A stretch of DNA of 56,096 nt, filler included, from Bipalium vagum (taxonomy: Eukaryota), in the NCBI GenBank assembly GCA_037834085.1. It is 3 parts of 3 records of this genome, joined end to end, with 100 filler letters (N's around TTAATTAATTAA, not from the genome) between each part and the next. Parts side by side here need not be neighbours in the genome. Positions count along the whole stretch, not along the records: positions 35,602 to 56,096 come from JBBMKC010251987.1; 2 more parts are not named here. One strand, given 5' to 3'. Below are positions 35,602-53,509 of the stretch, one piece after another (the first letter of the stretch is position 1; each line of letters starts with the position of its first letter). The position numbers and the translations under genes were made by a program. Under the pieces are notes generated by a model. That model did not search any database and was not told the DNA's origin. It saw only the letters and a program-made list of their open reading frames with translations.

Positions 35602-36894
35602 TAGTTTATTTACTTGATGCTGAACAGCATCAACGTTAATATATATTTTTATTAGTTTTAATTTGTCTTGTCTTGGTTAAAAATATTAAATTTTAAAACC
35701 TTTTAACGTTTAATTATTTGGGTAAAAGTTTACAAGTAATTTTGCAAGTATTAGTACAGTTTCAAGTATTATATTCGATAATTATTAGTAAAGTTAAAGT
35801 ATTTCTATTTGACTTTGAAGTCTTAGGTATTATCTAATATTAGAATTATTCAGTTATATTCATTGATATAATATAGCCCAGCTTCAAATAATATTTAAAA
35901 ATTCAAATGGCTATTATATTTTTTAGAATGGTTTCAAATATATGCAGTGCCGTTTCAAATAATATAGACAATGCGGTTTTTTTATATAATATGCAATATG
36001 AGTATCAAAATAGTCTTGGTATATCAAAATTGTCATTTTCTTTTAATGAAAACACATCGTTACTTGTACTTATGATTATGTCTATGATTATTTTTTATTT
36101 TCAAATAAGAATAGGAAATTTGGAAAAGACAAATCTTCAAAAAATAGTTGAAATGACTAAAAAGAAAGATCGTTATAAACTAATGGCAAAGATCAACTTA
36201 AATGAAATTTAATTGTTATTGTATGTATTGTTATTTGTTTTTGTTCGCTACGTGAAAATTCAAATTTTTGCCTTTAATTAACTATAGCCTATAAAATTAA
36301 CCATATATAAGAGATCAAAAATTCTAAAAGATACAAAAAATTTTATATATATCTTGTAATAAAAGTTATATAAAGCAAAATTATAAAATTTTATTATTGC
36401 AATTAGCGAATACTTATTCCGGCCATTATAATAATCATTTCTCAGATCCTGTCGTTTCATCAACAATTATTTTAAATATTTTAACGTCAATTAGGCATTA
36501 CTTCAACGACAGTTCAGCATTTCCTGTCATTATTATTATTACGATAACAACTACTATAAAAGCAGCAATCGCAGAGAATAAAAGAAAAAGATGTGGAGAC
36601 TACGACCAAACAAAGCTCCAAAAACACCAACAGCATCAAATTCGTGACAAAAACTTTTTGTGATTATAAACTTTTCTAACTTTGTGATTATCAATAACAC
36701 TTCTAGTATCTTGGTGATCGTCCATTCATAAATGTGCATGAAACTTTATTTATTCTTGTGTATTAAATTTACGCTCCAACCTTTAACATCTTTTTGTCCA
36801 TCAACTTAGGATCTTAACAGGATTATTGTAGAAAAACTCTGATGTAGCTACAATAATATAATAATATAATAATACAATATTATTTGAATTCATA

Positions 36895-37302
36895 ATGGCC
36901 GGTCATAACTTAGGGGAAATGCCAGTACTCCCCAATGTTGCTGAGTTTCACCAATCATGGCATAATTTAATTCAACAGAACGCATTGTTGAATAATTTAC
37001 TAGTTCAAGTAGAACAAATACAACATCAGATTCAGCAACTTCAACAGGATAATCAGCAACAACAGCAGATTCAGAATCTGGAGGCACAAGTTGGAATGCT
37101 GAAGGAAAATGAAAATCTTTGGAGCTATTCAATGAATGACATCGTTAAAAGGGCAAGAGGTTATAGAAGAGCAGGAATTAATAGAGCAAAGGCTCATGGA
37201 TTTGGAATTTTCAAACCGGAATTTTTGCTATTTCTAATGCGTGTTCCTGTTTTTTTTGTGGGCTTAATATATCAATTAAGAACCAAAATAATAATAAAAT
37301 AA
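36895..37302 (+). CDS. Q-rich coiled-coil ORF, possibly ORF1/gag-like of the element carrying the glycoprotein
   Basis: ATG-initiated 135-aa ORF with LIQQNALLNNLLVQVEQIQHQIQQLQQDNQQQQQIQNLEAQV heptads. It follows an LTR/PBS-like segment. No recognised homologue. Confidence 0.45.
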   Translation: MAGHNLGEMPVLPNVAEFHQSWHNLIQQNALLNNLLVQVEQIQHQIQQLQQDNQQQQQIQNLEAQVGMLKENENLWSYSMNDIVKRARGYRRAGINRAKAHGFGIFKPEFLLFLMRVPVFFVGLIYQLRTKIIIK

Positions 37303-37358
37303 AATAATAATAATAATATAAGTAATATAAAATAATCCGACCAAATCCTACTCTTACA

Positions 37359-38135
37359 GAATATACAAAAATCCCTGACAATTACCGATCAGCACCCCGA
37401 CGAAGTTCTAGTAGCGATGAGCCGAAAACGCCTACTGTCTACTATGCGTACTATAGAAGTGAGCTCATACGCTCAATACTAAAGAAAGAAATAATTAAAT
37501 GTACCTTATAATGTATTGAGGAAATTGAATTTTATGATCTGATTCAGATAGTTTCGCATTTCTTCAATTTAACGAGGCCTAAAAAGACAGTTGGTGGATA
37601 CGCAAGATAACATAGATGTGGAATGTGACAGAATCAGCAGAGTCAATAAAAAAGAAGATAAAAAAATTGTGGTCATTCTGTTCATTCAATTTTAATTCAA
37701 AATTTTCAAAAAAGAAAATTAAACATCTACTTTTTTTGGTGTGACCTAAATACATTTTTGAAAAATATTTATTGTTTTTTGTGCTCGAAATTAAAAATAA
37801 ATATTAAATATTAAAAATAAAATAATAAAGTTTAAGTTAGAAAATAAAGTTTTGCTTGTAAATAAGGAACACGTCTGGAGATTTGAACTAAAACACAACA
37901 AACAATGTATTTAGATAAAAGAAAGGCTTTTTTCAACGGTATTCACGAATAGCTCGGTTTCTGGCTCGATTCTCCGAAGATAGAAATGGCGATCTCAATA
38001 ATATATTTTTACAATACAGGGAATATACAAAAATTCCTGATAATTACCGATCAGCATACCGATGAAGTTCTAGTAGCGATGAGCTGAAAACGTCTAGTGT
38101 CCTAATACGCTCAACACTAAAGAAATAATTAAATG
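37359..38135 (+). repeat. Diverged direct repeat pair (37359-37502 and 38022-38135)
   Basis: Both copies share GAATATACAAAAAT.CCTGA.AATTACCGATCAGCA..CCGA.GAAGTTCTAGTAGCGATGAGC.GAAAACG...ATACGCTCAA.ACTAAAGAAA..TAATTAAATGT. Confidence 0.9.
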
Positions 38136-38811
38136 TGGTGTAGCTGTCATTGAAACTATATAGGTATACATGTTACCAAGGAAAAAGTAACAAAAGAATA
38201 GTTCCGATATTAAATTGGATTATTACCATGATATACATAGGCAATTAAAAGATGTTTATCTAAAAACTATTCTGAATAACTGTAAATTGGCTAGAGAAAT
38301 ACTAAAAAATGTATTATTATTGGCAATAAATAACCCTGAATTGATCATTCAAGATGGAGTTTTTGGTTACGTTTACGGTTTTGGTTACTTACGTCAAGAT
38401 TTAGTTTTGTTTCCCCTCTCACTAGAATGATTCCCGAAGTAAGCGTTCAACCTCAAATGGCCATGTGTGAACCAATTATATCACCAATTTATAAAATAGG
38501 CGAACAGTGGAAAACCACTACGCGATAGAGTTCAAACTATTGATGCCTTAGATATAAAAAATATTGTAGAATTCAAACCCTTACAATACATTAATGATGG
38601 AGGTATCTATTCCATGAAAGATATCAAACAAGCTAGTAAAGTTATCCTCTTTCCTCAAGCCCAAGAACGAGGAATAATTGAAATGATTACTAAAATCTAT
38701 AACTCGCAAGAAGGAAAAATTGATTATAATTTACTCTTAGGAGCCGATCATCATACACATGCACCGAACATGTGTACAATTCGAAATTTGAACCACGAAA
38801 TACCTGCATAA
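38110..38811 (+). pseudogene. Endogenous chuvirus-like / herpes gB-like class III fusion glycoprotein relic
   Basis: Collinear frameshifted blocks: KEIIKCGVAVIET; IKLDYYHDIHRQLKDVYLKTILNNCKLAREILKNVLLLAINNPELIIQDGVFGYV; AMCEPIISPIYKIGEQW; FKPLQYINDGGIYSMKDIKQASKVILFPQAQERGII. These match the recalled order and spacing of chuviral G motifs (SKFVYVE.HI..Q...LY......C.LERQVL.N.L..A...P; C....P.MY.I...W; SGIY...D.......IMFP). Confidence 0.75.
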
Positions 38812-40539
38812 ATTAGAAGATAGCACTAAATTATTCAGACGAATTCGACTACCAAGGCTGACGCATATTACTATAAATGTACAACATCAATCACAAATAT
38901 TCAGTTCATATTTTATGCTTTCAAGTAATTTATTTAGTTGTTATTATTTATATTATATTATTATTTCTTTTAATATCAAGCTTTATTTTTTGTAATTGGT
39001 AATTCTTCAGAGTTACACAATTACTTGAATAATTTACTGAAATATCAAACCCCCCCAGTTGGTAAATTTTAATAAAATTACACAACTATTTTAATTAATT
39101 ACCTTAAAAATAAATGTTAAAAATCAAGTAACTCTTTTTGTTTTTTCATTTCTGTCGCAGATTTTTTTTTTCGTAGTTCACACACTAATTAGGGTGGTGA
39201 AATAGATGGAGACAAGTTGTTGAAAATAATGGAAACTATATTTAGGATTAAAAAAATATCTTTGTTAAAAAAATTTTGGTTTTTATTTTTGTTTAAAATT
39301 TTTCAAGAACCTTACCTTCAACCTGATATTAATTCAGGCTAGATTATTGATTTTCATTAATCTTGAGTATTTATTTTGTTTTAATTAATTGTCTCGATTT
39401 TATTGAACTTTTTGTGTTTCATTTGTGAAATATGCACACATTTTATGGAATTGACATTTAACATCGGACACACTAAAAATGTTGAACATCACAAAAGAAT
39501 GAGAGTAGATACAATATTGCAAAATCCAAGGAAAACCTATGCATCTAGAATCAAAAATTGATGAAATGATTGTGCAACTCATGTCCGGCGGGTGTTATCC
39601 GGAAAAACGGGTCGGTTCGAATATATGTGATTTTAAGACGTATTAACACCAAACTATTTTCTTTCTAAGCCAGATATGCAGTTATTTTTGGTCAATTTAA
39701 CCAAATTCTCATCTATAGGTCTCGTTTAACAGGGCCTTCAGTGAGCAACCGTGAGCGCTCAGTTGATGGAATGGAAATTTAGGCCTAAGATTAATTTTAA
39801 GATTTTTTTTCCTTTTAAATTAAAATTATTATTAACTGTGTTTATTTGTTTGAATTAGCTCTTATTATTTGATAAACATTTTATTTCAGGACAACTTGAT
39901 ATTGCTGTTGTTATTCGCTTATGTTACTGTAATATAAATAAATTAGTTTTTCTGATTTTTTTCTTTCGCACCATCATGTTAAATGTGATACACTACATAT
40001 TAAACCATTTGATGAGAGATATTTCTGAAACTTAACTTTTTCAAAAATGAATTTTATAGGCCTAAAGAAAACATTTTGTCTAAAGTTCTCTAGAATGTCA
40101 CTCTCATTGTTGTAATATTACGTAAAAAGAGCTATTTTGCTCGACTCAAGGTAATTTTAATCTTTAATAAGCTGCTATTTTTTAATACAATCCATCAGCT
40201 GATTATAAAAAACAGAACTGATTAATTAACCAACTAGATGTTATTGACTTCTCCATAACGACATTTTGATCGTCGACTTCATAAATGACCTGCTGACATG
40301 AATTTAATTACTTAGTTGAAGGAGCACTTATACACAGATATTGAACGACAACTAAATTTTAACTATTAAAATCAAAAGAATTTTCAAAATTATGATTAAA
40401 TTTATCATTTTAAACAAAATTGGATTTAATTTAATATTTTACATTGGACAAAGTCTCAAAATTTTATTTTAAATTTACATTATATAAAATATCTCGATAA
40501 AAGTTTCAATGATCATTCTATGTTTGAGTCAGATTTTTT

Positions 40540-40802
40540 TCCAGTAAAATCCAATTAGATTGGGTGGACCAGAGCGAATCATTCAGATAGACGAATCCTT
40601 ATTTAGGTATTTTCTCTCATTTATTTTCTTGTTTTTAAGATACAAACCAAAAAATCATAAAGGCCGTGCTCCTGACCATGAGTTATTGGTTTTTAGCATG
40701 ATTGATGACTCCAAAAATAGAAATATATTTTTGCAGTTTGTAAAACACAGAAAATCTGCCACTTTATTACCAATTGTAAAAGCCATTGTAATCACATACT
40801 GA
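40540..40802 (+). mobile_element. Merlin (ISXO2/IS1595-like) transposase fragment containing a 33-nt GT-AG intron
   Basis: LGGPERIIQIDESLFR|YKPKNHKGRAPDHELLVFSMIDDS..SATLLPIV, with the intron at 40607-40639. Near-identical to 48190-48415. Confidence 0.88.
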
Positions 40803-42905: not shown

Positions 42906-43793
42906 GTCAATTTTAGTAATTCTCCATGACCATTTTGACCATTGTTTAACAAATTAATACTAAAAACTCTACCAAGTCTTTTATTAGAAGTTTTGTTCGT
43001 CACGGTTCAAATAATATATACCGCCCAGTCTTATGTTAAATTGAACTTAGATTATGTACATAAGTCGGTAGCGCACATGTAACTTCATAGGTCCAGTCAC
43101 TGGTGTACATACGCAGCACGTGGAAAGTTTTCACAACAAAATAAAACTACGGCTGAAAATGATAAAGGGCATCGATAACCACAAAAAGGATTTTTTACCA
43201 GAATTCATATGTCTGGATACCTGGAAGGAAGAAACATTTAGTAAAGCTCTACATTTATTTTGTGTCTTTATTTTAATCATGGAGTATCAAATTTAAATGA
43301 TTTTTTATGTAGTGTCAATTTAGGTGATGACATTATGTCGTGTAAGCATTATTTTTTGATTGTCGTAGTGTCACTTTAACATGATTCAAAGCAATAGACA
43401 ACATTCATATCAATGACAAATAAGAATTCTAATCACTGTGACATATTAAATATTTTTTTATTCCACCGTATTGTTGTTTTATTATATTACATATGCAAAC
43501 ATTTTTCCAAATGAAAGAGAAGCACTGTCATATTAATTTATTATTAAATAATAATATTAAAAAACAATTATTTTGGTTAATTAATTAAAAAAATGATTAT
43601 ATATATATATTAAATATTTATCATTTTGAAATTTTATCTTTATAAAATTTAATTATTTTTTCTGTTTGAAATTTAATTATTATATATTTTTTTTCTTTTC
43701 TTAAATTTAGTCAGTTTTTTAAATATAAATTTTGTTTTTGTTTAAAAATAGCTTAACATTTTTAATACTTTTAAAAATATTTTTATTGCAAAA

Positions 43794-44549: not shown

Positions 44550-46469
44550 ATTTTTTGTCTATGTTCTTAATAAAAGTATTTAAATCATAAAATTGATCTA
44601 TGGGACTTTCAAAGACCATTCGGACTCGTACAGGTAGTTAAGGTTTCTTTTACAAGATTGATCCACGTCTGTGAAAGGAAATCGATTGACAAGCTCGTTA
44701 CCTTGACCAGCCGACCAAATCCATTCAACACTTATCATCAATCAAAAAAATTAATCAGGCGTGCTAATCAATTTTATTTTATTTAATCCTTTTTTTTTAT
44801 CTCTTTTATTATATTTTATATATATATTATTATTATTATATTATTAATTATATATATATATATTTATTATTACCATGATTGTCCAAAAACAAGTAATCAA
44901 GGCAATAAAACATATGTTGAAGTAATTAAAAATTCAAAACCCCCAATTCCACCAATTAACCGAGAAAAACGAACTTCATAATTTCCAAGAATTTTAAATA
45001 AGAATTACAAAAATCAATATATTTTTAGATCAAACGAAAAATAGACATCCCGCAGATAGATATTGAAGAAAATTTGAGACTGAAACAGTAAAAGTTTATT
45101 TTGTTAATCACAACTATATTTTAACTTTGAAAATGGAAAGAGTTTTCAAAATTAGTATATTAGATTGATCATTTCAAACAAATGTAGATAAATGACTGTA
45201 GAGAGAGGACTGGAGTTAGCCTCACAATTATAATCGCTAATTAAAATAATACATTTAGATGTGCAGCCTTTAATAATTTAAGAAAGCCTTTTTTTAATTA
45301 CTGACACCGGGAAGGAATTGAACTTCAGCCTGAAATCCATCACTTCATTAATTTTAATTCTGTTAAATATATTTCTTAACACTTGTAATTTAAATGGTTA
45401 AATATTTTAAAAGAAAATGGGTAAAAACTGGTGAACTTTACAGGAGTAGAGGAAGTCACATCGGATTTAATTGGGGGGTATAAATCTCAAGGAGGTATTC
45501 GGATTAACAATGGTTAAAAAAATTCCTTTCACTCTTACCTGACAAATACCATTATATGCAAGCAATAAAAATCAATGGAAGCACAATGGAATCGTTAGTC
45601 ACTTGAGAATGAATAGTATCAATTCTGAATTAAAAAGTTATGCATAGAATGAAAATAATGGAAAAATTTACCATATCACATCGATCAGAACAAATATGTT
45701 TATTGTTCCTATGAATAAGGAAACAGATGTGTTATTAGGTTGCCCAGTATGAAATTTCACTTTTTTATCTAAATTACTACTAAAAATACGACAGTTCATA
45801 CTGGACAACCTAATATTTGAACCAAAATTAAAAGATGAAAAAGAAGAGAAACTAATATCTCGATAAAGTGTAGGAGTAGTGCGTAATTTTCAAATTACAG
45901 TTAGGATGGTAAATTTCGGCACAAAATGTGAATGAGGAAGACTTTGTAAAACATATAATGTGCAGGACATAATATCGGCATAGAAAATAGAACAAAATCT
46001 AACAATACAAAAAGTACGAGAAGCAGCGGAACGAAAAATATAAAACAGGTACAAGTTTATTCTAGGATTAGCAAATTATTATAGAAAATTCGTGGCCTCA
46101 TTTTCACACATTTCGGTACCATTAAATGCTTCATTAGGAAAGGCCAGAGTTTTGTTGACAAGAAAAATAACAGTACGTAACAAGAAAATCTGAAAGCCAC
46201 AAACAATGTTGTATTCTTCCGAATGTCACGCATGGAATCCAGGTACATATTTGGAATATTATTTCTATTAATAAAATAAACTAAGGGTGGGCAGACTTAT
46301 TTAAAGGAGTGTATGTATTTCTTTTGACCTCCTGTACCTCTCATGGGCCTCGACGTCTATATCAGCAAATAATTATTATCTTATATCATTTTATTTCTGA
46401 CTATCTTATGAATTATTACCTCTTCTCTGACTCTTTCGTCTCTACTACCTTCTTCTCTCTATTAATACA
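44550..46469 (+). mobile_element. Decayed Gypsy LTR retrotransposon (pol relics, possible PPT + 3' LTR)
   Basis: RT-RNaseH connection motif KQVQ/ILGLANYYRKFVASFSHISVPLN at ~46043-46135 and a protease-end-like MFIVPMNKETDVLLG at ~45697. Purine-rich AAAGGAGTGTA is followed by TGTATT...AATACA (46314-46469). Outer limits uncertain. Confidence 0.65.
45735..45813. mobile_element. 79-bp mariner-derived MITE
   Basis: TA|TTAGGTTGCCCAGTATGAA ... TTCATACTGGACAACCTAA|TA: 19-bp TIRs with one mismatch and a TA target duplication. Confidence 0.88.
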
Positions 46470-47359
46470 CACTTAAGAAATATCCCAATGAGCGGAGAAG
46501 GCAGGCAATCAAATTACCAGAAAGAAAACTAATACAAAGAACAAAATAGTACACGATGCACATTTTCCTCGAAAAATGATTTGTTTTTGAAATAAATTTT
46601 ATTCAACAAATGACTTCTTTTGATATTGCAGCTAACGATAATAATAATTCACTGGATCTATCAAATTAATTTGTGTACCGAAACTCGTTTGTGTGAATAC
46701 GCTAGAATATTTGCTAATTTTAATTATAAAACCAAAATTCGAACCAATTTGGTTCGATTACATGTTACTTTATTTACACAACTTATTGTGTAATACAGCT
46801 TGTATTTAAAAGTCAATAAAATCAATTTTAATAGTTTTTATAGGTCAATTTCCGTTATTTTATGGGTCAAGATATTAGATAAATTTTTTTAATCTTTAGG
46901 TCAATTTTTGGGGGCTTTACCGATAACATTCTAAATTATTACAGCTGTTCCTTTTATATTGCATCGAAAACTTTGGTTTTCTTCCTTCGATTTCCTTTCA
47001 TTCGTGATAAAGTAAATATATGAATACTACTGAAATTAACAATACCGAAAAATAATAAATAAAATACCAAATATATTGCAAATAAATATCAATGTTACAA
47101 CATTACATCGAAGATACATTGCAGATTCATGAAGTCACTCGTTAAAGAGAGCCCAGTGTGTTTGGAAATCCATAAGTGACCTGAAAAGTACATTTGGAAA
47201 ACCCTTGTCACTTCTGGCCAGGATTACCTTTTAATCTCTGCTTTTCTTTTCGTGATTTCTTTTCAATTATTATTCGTAACATTTATCATAAATTATTTTT
47301 GATTCATATGCATTTGTGTTTAACTTAACGATTGTTTCCGAGTTAATTTTCATATTAGG

Positions 47360-47530
47360 CCATAAAAACCAGAGAAAAGCACATCGAACCAATTTTGTGG
47401 ACCCCATAGCTCATACCCAAAATGTGGGAAGCATGTGCACGTGCTTCAAAATGAAGATCCAAAAGTCACATGGATTAAATACCTACAGCCAAGACAGATA
47501 TATCGATTATCTGTAGGAATTCTGCAGGGT
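47360..47530 (+). mobile_element. Merlin transposase C-terminal relic (second family)
   Basis: HRTNFVDPIAHTQNVGSMCTCFKMKIQKSHG..YL*EF matches the Merlin NH..NFVDP..HTQ.IES.W motif. Confidence 0.7.
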
Positions 47531-47769: not shown

Positions 47770-48765
47770 AATGGATTTGAAAGCAATTAATACGTTAGTT
47801 CTAGGTACCCCAGCTGATGCAATTTGCTTTTTAAGAGAAAATAATGTTATTATTATCAGGCATTCATAATATTATTTATTTATTTTCATTATTTTAATTT
47901 TTAGATACATGCGATGATTGTGACAATCAATTTAAGGAAAGCAAATGAAAAAGAAACACTGATTGTGTTTCATGGCGCTGTTTTAGTAAAAATTATACTA
48001 ATTATTTTTCTATCAGGATAAAATCATTTTTTGAAAAATTTAAGATTTCTCTGAACAAATGTATACATTTATGGGCTCTGGGCAGATCACAAAAGTCTGC
48101 CATTGAAGACACTGGACTATCAAAGTCGGTCATTGTTGATTTTTATTCACAAATGGGACAACAATGTGAGATTTTTTTCAGGGAAATTCAATTAGATTTG
48201 GTGGACCAGAGCGTATCATTCAGATATACGAATCCTTATTTAGGTATTTTAATATTTCTCTCATTTATTTTCTTATTTCTTTTTTTTTAAGATACAAACC
48301 AAAAAATCATAAAGGCCGTGCTCCTGACCATGAGTTATGGGTTTTTGGTATGATTGATGACTCCAAAAATGGAAATATATTTTTGCAGTTAGTAAAAAAC
48401 AGAAAATCTGCCACTGATTAGAATGATTCCATTATAATGAGTGACGAATGGCGAGCTTATTCGCAATTATCTAAGGACAAAAATTATATACATCAAATGG
48501 TGAACCATAAGATGTCCTTTGTCAACAGGGAGACCGGTACTCATACACAACGAATAGAGTCAATGTGGGGGAAACTGAAGAATAAGATAGTCGCAATGAA
48601 AAGTATATGGTGCTGTCCTCCATTCATACCTTTGTGAATGGATGTGAAAACAGAATATACAAAAGAATAAACAAGCACTTTTTCATTTATTAAAATGTAA
48701 CAAATATTTTCAGTTGCACCAAGTTTTTATTTTGACCTTCGAGTTGCATCAAGTCTTATTTGACC
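47770..48765 (+). mobile_element. Near-full-length decayed Merlin transposon with two introns
   Basis: MDLKAINTLVLG..|TCDDC..WRCFSKN..SIRIKSFFE..FGGPERIIQIYESLFR|YKPKNHKGRAPDHELWVFGMID..SIIMSDEWRAYSQL..VNHKMSFVNRETGTHTQRIESMWGKLK. Introns at ~47859-47905 and 48244-48291. Ends in repeated TTTGACC motifs. Confidence 0.9.
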
Positions 48766-49679: not shown

Positions 49680-52600
49680 TCAAATTACATTCACCAAAAA
49701 TAATTTTTCAATTTCATAAAGTGATAATTTAAAATTGTCATAAACTTCGAAAAAACGATTCTTTGTTTTTTTCATGGTAAAATGCAACGTCACTGCCCAT
49801 AGGAAAATACTTGGTTCATTTATTTAAAAGGTTGATATAAATTATTCAATTAAAAACCGAAATGATGAAATAAATAGCTAAAATGTTTGAAAATCAATAA
49901 TAAAGATTAAAATAGATATTTTTCTATGAGAATGATAGTAGTCTTTATAAGATTATTTGCTTACATTCATAATTTTGAAAAATTGACCTACATTGTTCCG
50001 GAAATAAATTTCTTTCTGCACAAAATCAAGTTAGAAGGTTCAGCTACTTCTTCATCATCTTTATATTATTATTCTAAATCAATTTAATATTAGTAATATG
50101 AATTAGTTTTAAAACAAACTTTACTTTGGCTGAATAAAGACAAAGACGTTTCAATTCCGCTTTTAAACGGTAATATTAAAACAAATGTGTTTTTCTTTAA
50201 AATATTATTGAAAAAGTTTACATATCTATTCTATAAAAATAAAATCAAAACCAATTTTCAAAAGCGAGGCTTAATATTTTTTATTTTAGTAATTTTGCAA
50301 GAATATTTATAAAAATAAGTTAAACTTGAGTCTTACTAAAATATAAATAGAATTGTTTTTTTTCGATAGGCCACTAAATTTTAATGTGGTCTAAACATAA
50401 TTAAAATAACAAAATATAGATTGGCTTAATTTACAATTTGAAATTTTCATCCTTCGATTTGAAAAATATTTTCTATAACAATAAACAACTGATCACTTTA
50501 CATTCAATCTAGAAACATTAACTATTATTTATCTTTCGAAATAATTTATATAATTAGGAAAAAGTCACCTCAACGAGAAATAAACATAAATGGGGTTCAC
50601 TGCACGACATCGGACCACAAATGGAAAGCTCGACATGGTCATTCTATGACTTACATAAACATACTAAATATGCCAATATTATATGCTCTGTTGAATTATG
50701 AAGTATGTGAACAATAATTTCCCTAAGACTCGTAGAATATTTAAGAGGAGAAACTTAAATATTAAAGAAACTAATATATTACGAATGTAATACTTTTCCA
50801 ATTATTTTTTTTAAAATGTACATAGTATAGACTTCGATAAGTGCATAGAAACCATTAAGGGTCTATAAAAATATAATAATTATGATAATAATATTGTTAT
50901 TATTTTCCCTTATCGGAATATAAAACTTTAGCTCGAATTTCACTAAATCCTCAATTCTTTAATTTTGAGTTCGTTTTCCTTACACAGCTAGACGTTTAAA
51001 CTTTATTGAATCAAAATGATCACGATAAAAATTTATTTCGTTTCTCACCTCAAAATGAATCAAAATAATAAGAATAAAACTTTATTAAACTTAAAACAAT
51101 TTACAATAACACCGATTACATAGCCTCACAGTAAATTTCAGAAAATTAATTAGAGTAAAATATTAGTCAAATGTCTGACTGGAATAAATTACTGCTAATA
51201 ATTAAATCAAATTCCAAAAATCAAACGAAAGAATCAAATGGATCAAAATACTAAACAAATGAAAAACCATAAATAATACTCTCATATAGAGAGACAATTG
51301 ATCCTCGGGTCGCCCTTTAGGTCCTTTTCGGTATCCTAGGAATTCCTAACCTCAATAGACTAATAGTGAAATCTTGTTGCACAACTTTCTTCAAGCAAAA
51401 ATGTCTACGGATCAATTTAGATAAACGTCTTCTTTTTGATATACACTGGATCTTCTTCAGTTTGAAATAAATCTGCTATCCTGATAAAAATCGTCTGAAT
51501 AATAAAAAGAATAATAATATTTTCGCCCGTCAACTTATATATTCGTAGAGATGGGTGTGAGACCGTCAATAGTGAAATACGGCTATTTCCCATAATAGGC
51601 TTTTAAATCTGACTTTATTTCGGCTGCGAGATAATAATTATTATTATTTCGTTTTTCGATAAAGAGTACCGAGAAAGCTACTCACAGATCGAAGACGAGA
51701 ATTAATGAGCGAACGTCTAACGAAAATTAATAATTATTTTGGCATTTTGAAACTAAATACCACGCCCTAAATACACTTTAGCCATTATATTATTCTGATA
51801 CTTTAATAAGAAGCAAAATGATAGAGATATACACATTGGTTCATGTTTATTTGGTTACCGAAACTCAGTGCATTTGGAGACAGAATATCCTATGTTCTAC
51901 CTCATGTATCTATGTCATACAAATATTCCAATAAATTTAACATTTCAAAATCCAATTAGCCAATATATGCAAGAACCAGATTATGCTACTATAATAAAAG
52001 AACGTATGCAAGAATCATGGAGAAGAGCAGAATTAAATATAAAATATAATCAGGAAATAATGATAGAGTCGTATGATAAAAAATCCAAAATCCCACATTA
52101 ACTATTGGTGACAGAGTTATGGTAGAAAACCCTGCAAATAAAAACGTCAAACTCAAGGTTAGGCTGAATCTTCAAAGGACCTTATGTTATCGAAAAGATT
52201 TTCGATAATACTTTTTTTATCAAGAAACCACTGGAAATCAAAAAAGGATCCTGAATAAATTCTTATGAATAGATGTAAAACGATAGATTCTGTTTTTAAT
52301 TAACATTTTTGTTCAACATGTTAATAATTCATTTCAAAATTATGAAAAAAAAGGAGGAATCCCCAGTCAAATTGCTCCTCCCTAGAACTTATTAATCTGT
52401 TCGTTATTTCTGTCAATACATTTTTACTTTTTTCTTTCTATTTAATTAAATTTTTAATCAAAAGAAAGTGTTTAACTTGCAGAAATTGAAACCAATCTCC
52501 AATGATTGAATTAGTTACATATTAAATGACCGAATTATAGCAATTACATTATTGGACAAATGGTGTATTACAATTACTTTGTTTCACTGTTTATTGTTTT

Positions 52601-53509
52601 CAAAGTTTAGTACACACACATCTAAACGATTTTGTATTTAAACTGATTATTATTTTATTATATTCCTTTACACTGAGATCATAACTTCTAAAGAGGTGAA
52701 GCTAATGCCGCACATGTCCTGAGAAAATGCATGTATTTTTATAAACATCGTTTAATATCCTGCAGCTTTCTGCGGCAGTTTTGTTCACCATGAAGTAATG
52801 TATGATAATTTCCGGCAAGTGTTCTTTGCTTGCAGTATTATAAATAAATATATATTCTATCTACATTTTTATTGGACAAAAGTAAAAAAAACCTTTTTAA
52901 TTCTAAAATTTAAAAAGACAATTTTTTAATATTTTTAAAAATATTTTTTTAAAAGTATTAATTTAAGAAAACAATAATCATTCATTGATACCTGCTTTCT
53001 CCATTTTGTGAATAAATTCCTGGTTTCAGTCATTTTAAATACTAATGATTCGCATATTTTTCTTTCTTCATCATTATCAAAGTTCTTCATTACTAAAAGT
53101 TTTAATTGTCTGAAATTTCTAACAGAAATAAAACTCAGATTTATTCAGATATATCACATTTATAGAAAAAGAAGATTTTGAATATTTATTTAATTATTAT
53201 ATAAACGAAAAATGTGTGTAATTTTTAAAATTTCAGTTTATGCAACGAGCACATTTATCATTTTAATTAATTTAATAAAAAATTTCCATAAAAATATTTA
53301 TATATTTAGTTCTACAATGTCATCTTTATGTTTTGAGCCACACTCATCATTTCTACTAAATGATCGAAATATCTAACTATAAATAGTTTGATTCAATTTC
53401 GAATATTTATGATTTTTTAATTTTCTCTTCAATTTTTTCTATTACCCAGATATTTTATTTTTATGAAATCCGAAATTTGAATTTTGATTCTATCTTGATT
53501 ATGCTTCAT
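49680..53509 (-). CDS. Multi-exon host gene, unknown product
   Basis: Seven phase-consistent GT-AG exons: MKHNQDRIKIQISDFIKIKYLV|RYFDHLVEMMSVAQNIKMTL|NFRQLKLLVMKNFDNDEERKICESLVFKMTETRNLFTKWRKQ|TIFIRIADLFQTEEDPVYIKKKT|GIETSLSLFSQ|NDEEVAEPSNLILCRKKFISGT|IIFLWAVTLHFTMKKTKNRFFEVYDNFKLSLYEIEKLFL. Both ends uncertain. Confidence 0.55.
51660..52290 (+). mobile_element. Gypsy integrase relic (intronic)
   Basis: LLTDRRRELMS, FGILKLNTTP, CLFGYRNSVHLETEYPMFYLMY, YDKK..LTIGDRVMV and FKGPYVIEK (GPY/F module). Confidence 0.85.
52660..52840 (-). mobile_element. Mariner N-terminal relic (intronic)
   Basis: SKEHLPEIIIHYFMVNKTAAESCRILNDVY (Mos1-type HTH). Confidence 0.75.

Follow-up and report, generated by a model that had tools for sequence, protein, structure and literature searches.

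What kind of virus, element or host gene left a broken fusogen in this genome is the question raised by a short stretch of the window, the whole 56,096-nucleotide stretch of DNA analysed here (filler included), taken from the Bipalium vagum assembly GCA_037834085.1. A first-pass annotation had placed an endogenised class III fusogen gene, chuvirus- or gB-like, at 38110..38811 and had suggested an undescribed virus lineage or an independent env capture. We are highly confident that the window instead holds a dead fragment of the env of a multi-copy planarian Ty3/gypsy element, encoded in frame with gag upstream and pol downstream of it, and likely acting as the fusogen of an enveloped particle.

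The relic-bearing part of the window, positions 35602-56096, is contig G000:C251987 (27.5% GC). The peptide motifs of the first-pass annotation were located in the + frame starting at 38098. When the stretch was read in this single frame, with X at the five stops, it matched Monjiviricetes_fusion (Pfam PF24664) above the cut-off of 27 bits (E 9e-10; Table 1), a significant class III match. Two stop-free pieces of the read matched the same family separately, both below the cut-off (E 4e-5 and 2e-4), and a search of the read by sequence against the PDB gave nothing useful. The extent and frames of the relic were set by ungapped mapping onto better-kept copies, which placed homology in six blocks spread over three frames (38015-38107, 38119-38157, 38154-38195, 38191-38367, 38397-38510 and 38512-38763). 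The annotated motifs are thus present and the annotated extent is wrong. The stops and deletions that had been reported are borne out in a modified form: all five stops of the single-frame read sit where the homology uses another frame, so the damage consists mainly of frameshifts and deletions, and the first block contains one genuine in-frame stop.

Measured against a reference of 553 residues (ectodomain plus anchor), the relic covers approximately residues 195-500. It lacks the N-terminal third, including most of the predicted fusion domain, as well as the membrane anchor and the signal, and no one frame of the window copy holds signal, fusion domain and anchor together. Its blocks are 74-92% identical to the copy at locus L056, and the last block is 83-85% identical in DNA to L002, L045 and L069; among the loci of this env subfamily, L045 and L069 carry gag. 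In a FastTree phylogeny the relic nests among copies from its own genome. The window copy is the dead relic of a class III fusogen family member, its function is most likely none, and the fragment is a product of ordinary decay.

Table 1. Features of the gypsy family in the window
Feature	Position	Strand	Basis
228-bp LTR (TG...CA) of the env-relic family	36592..36819	+	end matches the LTR ends preceding the tRNA-Trp primer site in L036, L124, L128, L129, L135 and L136
Second copy of the first env block	37335-37502	+	81-nt direct repeat, 90%; over 56 residues, 79% identical in amino acids to L056 env
Decayed middle part of gB-type env (central helix to C-terminal ectodomain)	38015..38763	+	PF24664, 37.5 bits
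Decayed integrase core and C-terminal part, same gypsy family	51648..52299	+	59-80% amino-acid identity to L032 integrase pieces
Decayed tail of post-integrase membrane protein X, stop, start of frame Y	52273..52645	+	71% DNA identity to L046

Copies of the window LTR elsewhere are up to 99% identical to it; no primer site follows it downstream and its 5-base flanks differ, and it is probably a solo LTR. The integrase relic is 70-86% identical in DNA to five loci, and the X-tail relic carries TAG CAATTA at 52538, a stop codon with a CARYYA context. Because the closest subfamilies of the LTR, env and integrase relics differ, these are probably separate insertions; the integrase-to-X relic in particular is probably an insertion distinct from the env relic.

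The window also contains other repeats. At 36865-37302, after the LTR and before the env relic, a glutamine-rich open frame of 145 codons is part of another dispersed repeat, with 74-95% matches elsewhere and no Pfam match above cut-off. Decayed frames at 40548-40802, 43072-43296, 47292-47516 and 47949-48637 presumably resemble Merlin/ISXO2-type transposases; the two of them scanned with Pfam gave no match. A distant RT fragment at 45795-46142 is 34% identical to the RT of the env-bearing gypsy family. The stretch at 39076-39201 also has matches at other loci; it has the look of an unrelated repeat and was omitted from the family features.

The host had been described in the first-pass annotation as AT-rich and unlike an insect, in agreement with the GC content and with the best COX1 of the assembly, which stays open when translated with the flatworm mitochondrial code and matches the COX1 of Platydemus manokwari, a geoplanid land planarian, at 100% identity. 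Two further COX1 sequences, one 94% identical to a Bipalium species (L071, G000:C246471) and one 80% identical to a mollusc (L072, G000:C253320), are probably prey DNA. With a second land flatworm and a mollusc-like animal each represented by COX1, the source of any single contig is uncertain.

Structure of the carrier element

The assembly contains at least 206 env matches, a lower bound because 150 of the 801 candidates were scored. Sixty contig stretches, selected for long open frames, were examined; the assembly comprises 272,664 contigs, a fragmentation through which young copies may be collapsed or cut. In long copies, Pfam identified env with an E value of 1e-82 (L031) and a score of 278.7 bits against the cut-off of 27 in a long copy, surrounded by Retrotrans_gag, zf-CCHC, Ank, RVT_1, RT_RNaseH, Integrase_H2C2 and rve. 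Env and an aspartyl protease share one open frame in L031, L032 and L042, and Gag CA and CCHC share one in L040. The order of profiles is of the gypsy type, with Gag and CCHC followed by protease, RT, RNase H and integrase, and the RT is 50-57% identical to those of six env-bearing polyproteins. No Pao-type Pfam family was matched in the 37 frames scanned, and no BIR, BCL2 or MATH domain in the gag-env frames scanned.

The domain order repeats across the mapped loci, with internal deletions common. The 5′ half consists of an LTR, a tRNA-Trp primer site, Gag (CA, CCHC), then roughly 700 residues that match no Pfam family, and env; the 3′ half consists of protease, ankyrins, protease, spacer, RT, RNase H, integrase, protein X, a stop codon with CARYYA, frame Y, a purine tract and an LTR. 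Most copies have two proteases and L031 has three, through an extra protease-ankyrin module that at least one subfamily carries, with the DTG motifs intact. Summed over spans of separate copies, the element is roughly 14-16 kb long. Across 341 open frames in 63 loci, every junction between the zinc knuckle and X has at least one copy in which a stop-free frame runs through it, the counts being 6 for mid-env, 7 for env-protease, 1 for protease-spacer and 12 for integrase-X. No copy examined is naturally unbroken from end to end, and the single polyprotein is therefore deduced junction by junction rather than seen whole, with the protease-spacer junction taken from one copy.

At six 5′ ends a common LTR end is followed by the primer site, and at five of the eight 3′ ends examined a purine tract is followed by TG. 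The LTR end together with the primer site gave 142 exact genome matches, against none for the reversed control. The primer site matches the 3′ end of the host tRNA-Trp; the gene called by ARAGORN differs from it by one base, and two truncated tRNA-Trp-like copies (L137 and L138) have a 3′ end that matches it exactly. TG...CA LTRs, a tRNA primer site and a purine tract are all present, with the 5′ and 3′ ends on different contigs; both LTRs of one element were seen on no examined contig of this fragmented assembly.

Env is absent from the copies L087 and L098, so it is not required for every copy to spread. Internally deleted derivatives (L087, L098, L066, L050, L076 and L079) include some without env and others that have lost both RT and integrase and retain protease, ankyrins and X. 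A search of sequencing runs with an env copy listed no RNA run, a result that carries no information on expression. The region preceding env has, by eye, a ubiquitin-like appearance.

Fold, relationships and origin of env

The natural open frame of L031 (553 residues, 107-row alignment) was modelled with AlphaFold, giving a pLDDT of 86.7 and a long central helix at residues 274-321. All listed PDB matches to this better-kept copy were herpes gB (best E 1.5e-11), with low TM scores of 0.3-0.4, and the best viral structural matches were chuvirus-type G proteins (E 2e-33, TM up to 0.66). Eight cysteines are at least 90% conserved in the 107 rows. Hydrophobicity of the predicted anchor and signal is no more than moderate (mean over 19 residues, 1.3-1.8). 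On the profile match and this model, the env family is a class III (gB/chuvirus-G-like) fusion glycoprotein with predicted fusion activity, in line with the class proposed in the first-pass annotation. The dN/dS of env is 0.05-0.22 in 19 of 25 copy pairs, the other six being saturated; the two least saturated pairs give 0.05 and 0.16. These values show purifying selection on env between copies.

A word-index protein search with env gave two matches only, and a full HMMER search of a library of 1.84 billion proteins was performed. The best library matches were long proteins with 26-39% identity, and full-length stand-alone G proteins had 22-27%; among the 15 long proteins scanned, nine carry a protease or RT after env. 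Related env-bearing polyproteins (P0153, of 4844 aa, P0005, P0006 and P0009) contain as many as seven protease motifs and end in a membrane protein, and two of the motifs in P0153 lie after the integrase. A FastTree env phylogeny was built from 38 rows, comprising 30 of the 150 listed matches, P0002 and seven rows from this genome, with out-of-frame stretches included in the window row. The seven own rows and 13 polyprotein-type rows, two of which are fragments whose context is not shown, lie apart from 18 stand-alone rows with an SH-like support of 100. The stand-alone side includes the named chuvirus G P0024 and a Pao-linked G, P0048 (DUF5641). The own-genome copies form a long branch together with one outside fragment. 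By eye only, env domains I-II share about 40% identity with Smed_errantivirus_4 and have its eight cysteines in the same order.

The gypsy-type pol domains and the want of any Pao-type profile in the 37 frames scanned argue strongly against an env from a Pao/BEL "Anakin"-like element, or a fresh capture independent of known ones. Such an origin would fit the long branch of the own copies and the membership of Pao-linked glycoproteins in the same Pfam family, yet the Pao-linked control P0048 falls in the stand-alone set, and the N-terminal half of env resembles, by eye, a published planarian gypsy element in sequence and cysteine order; we consider such an origin very improbable.

A directly endogenised G gene from a chuvirus-like negative-strand RNA virus of flatworms is slightly less probable still. 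The genome holds ten decayed matches to mononegavirus L polymerases, indicating that such viruses have integrated in the lineage, and the Pfam family PF24664 and the best structural matches alike point to viral G. Against this, env is in frame with a retrotransposon protease and has gag and pol on either side, the copies group with gypsy polyproteins outside the stand-alone clade that includes the chuvirus G P0024, and none of the five L-bearing loci examined among the ten (L140-L144) has env. The ten L matches, of which these five loci (G000:C118923, C86170, C92096, C155244 and C208304) were examined, are in themselves insertions of negative-strand RNA viruses in the assembly of a land planarian.

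Domestication of the window copy as a host gene, such as a secreted decoy or restriction factor, is equally improbable. In its favour, the pairwise dN/dS of this copy against others is below 1 (0.07-0.42), but these values include the selected history of the element lineage and so say little about the copy itself; against it, the copy has several frameshifts and deletions and neither signal nor anchor.

The reading as a dead env of a gypsy element is thus retained. Since gag-env-pol gypsy elements with a gB-type env are published for planarians, no new virus lineage or new capture is needed. Of the origins raised in the first-pass annotation, the retrotransposon env stands, as the copies adjoin gag and pol, and its independent capture is not supported; the undescribed virus lineage and the setting of a Pao/BEL "Anakin" element or chuvirus insertion give way to a Ty3/gypsy carrier.

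Protein X, its stop codon and frame Y

In frame after the integrase lies protein X, with a predicted signal, ectodomain, anchor and short tail, for which the genome contains at least 131 matches (127 of 562 candidates scored). Its dN/dS is 0.16-0.66 over 21 pairs and 0.22-0.23 in the three closest. The model of X (pLDDT 69.6, 16 rows) matched tandem FN3 domains (Foldseek E 9e-7, VIA Z 8-10, single-domain rmsd about 3), and X is predicted to be a membrane protein with two FN3 domains; this likeness of fold shows no function. An FN3-type motif flanked by hydrophobic segments follows the integrase in three of the four related library polyproteins checked. In a different gypsy lineage of the same genome (L149, G000:C194782:1-4703), the integrase is fused to a protein with a signal, an FN3-like part and a membrane anchor, and a separate downstream frame encodes an apparently intact DEDDh exonuclease (ISG20-like, E 1e-8), with no CARYYA after the stop of the fused frame.

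CARYYA-type readthrough is used by the plant element SIRE1. Of 17 distinct contexts of the X stop codon (14 TAG, 2 TGA and 1 TAA), 15 have CARYYA directly after the stop; the contexts were picked by tail peptide, so drifted copies are missed. After stop triplets in the window the background is 18 of 8513. The copies are related, but the motif is kept even between subfamilies that share only about 30% identity in X. The context is shared with the readthrough signal of TMV, UAG-CARYYA (PMC2754532), and the X stop codon is likely leaky, allowing readthrough into Y.

Frame Y shows conservation at the protein level, with dS mostly saturated, and yielded no useful Pfam match, no PDB match and no protein match. 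In one pairwise profile comparison, for which the control was blank, it resembled the ISG20-like DEDDh exonuclease of another gypsy element of this genome (probability 90%, E 1.5e-6, 82 columns). Most of the acidic active-site residues look lost by eye, and Y is probably an inactive DEDDh-like domain.

Proposed cycle and comparison with known elements

We propose that one polyprotein would be made from Gag through X. An internal signal sequence would direct the env ectodomain into the ER lumen and the env anchor would return Pol to the cytoplasm, with signal peptidase and the proteases of the element releasing the parts. Env would act as the fusogen of a putative enveloped particle, a second signal would insert X, probably an attachment or host-modulating protein, and occasional readthrough would add Y to give a minority long form of X. 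Fusogens of the gB type usually need a separate receptor-binding partner, as established for herpesviruses, and X, as another surface protein under selection in the polyprotein, may be what lets such elements choose cells, stem cells included. More broadly, planarian gag-env-pol elements might be enveloped endogenous retroviruses in which a gB fusogen is joined, as a two-part entry machinery, by an FN3 attachment or receptor-like protein encoded after integrase, with a cytoplasmic tail that TMV-type readthrough switches to carry a disarmed ISG20-like exonuclease, and by repeated proteases and ankyrins that process a membrane-threaded polyprotein; we offer this fuller picture tentatively, and regard it as rather unlikely in its entirety.

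Several known elements share parts of this organisation. Rotifer LTR retrotransposons carry a DEDDy exonuclease as ORF3 (Rodriguez 2017, PMC5408684), which like Y is a 3′ accessory frame with an exonuclease fold, as far as the accessible text describes it; Y is instead of the DEDDh/ISG20 type, seems by eye to have lost its acidic residues and would extend the tail of a membrane protein. The Anakin elements, also LTR retrotransposons with a glycoprotein of the same family, carry a chuvirus glycoprotein (Dezordi 2020, PMC7642597). In the accessible text they are Pao elements of other hosts with the glycoprotein downstream of pol, whereas here the element is gypsy and env lies upstream, fused to pol; in the env tree the two are on separate branches.

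Closer in plan is Burro/GYPSM1, a giant planarian gypsy element whose env is in frame with the gag before it and the pol after it (Arkhipova and Yushenova 2019, PMC6431247), and Burro-type expansion has been reported in land and freshwater planarians. According to the accessible text of PMC6431247, it shares with our element one long polyprotein, an env matching mononegavirus glycoproteins, ankyrin repeats and a spacer between protease and RT. The present element is about half the size of Burro, whose Burro1 internal region is near 25 kb and includes BIR, BCL2 and MATH, and the accessible account of Burro does not mention a repeated protease, an FN3 protein, readthrough or an exonuclease. In the literature searched, we found neither two to three proteases alternating with ankyrins, nor an in-frame post-integrase FN3 protein, nor a stop codon with CARYYA leading into a DEDDh-like frame. 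These extra features are new relative to that literature; the Burro literature and Repbase may already describe them, which may reduce their novelty.

The nearest described relatives are GAG-ENV-POL gypsy elements with a gB-type env, known from Nematoda, Bryozoa and Platyhelminthes and including six in Schmidtea (Chary and Hayashi 2026, PMC13524379). These six, Smed_errantivirus_1-6, are listed under Platyhelminthes with an HSV/gB-type env of cysteine type C1a, and the median env identity within a group is 33.5% in the accessible text of that study. The present element fits this group, with a gB-type env between gag and pol, a flatworm host and, by eye, the C1a cysteines. With the Smed elements it has in common a triclad host, a Ty3/gypsy pol, the placement of env between gag and pol, the gB-type fold and a similar length (14.5-18 kb by coordinates in Smed). 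Given these published elements and, by eye, the env identity of about 40% and the same eight cysteines, the core finding is a further member of a described kind. The differences are that the host here is a land planarian, "Geoplanidae" not occurring in the text of PMC13524379; that a tRNA-Trp primer site and a 228-bp LTR are present, where the Smed elements are listed with "none"; and that ankyrins, predicted FN3 domains and repeated proteases are found here, "ankyrin" and "fibronectin" being absent from the main text of PMC13524379 and "protease" occurring once. The element thus extends the gB-type gag-env-pol gypsy group to a land planarian, adds the LTR and primer details that its published relatives lack and, in its stop-CARYYA context, offers an inexpensive test case for programmed readthrough in a retrotransposon of animals.
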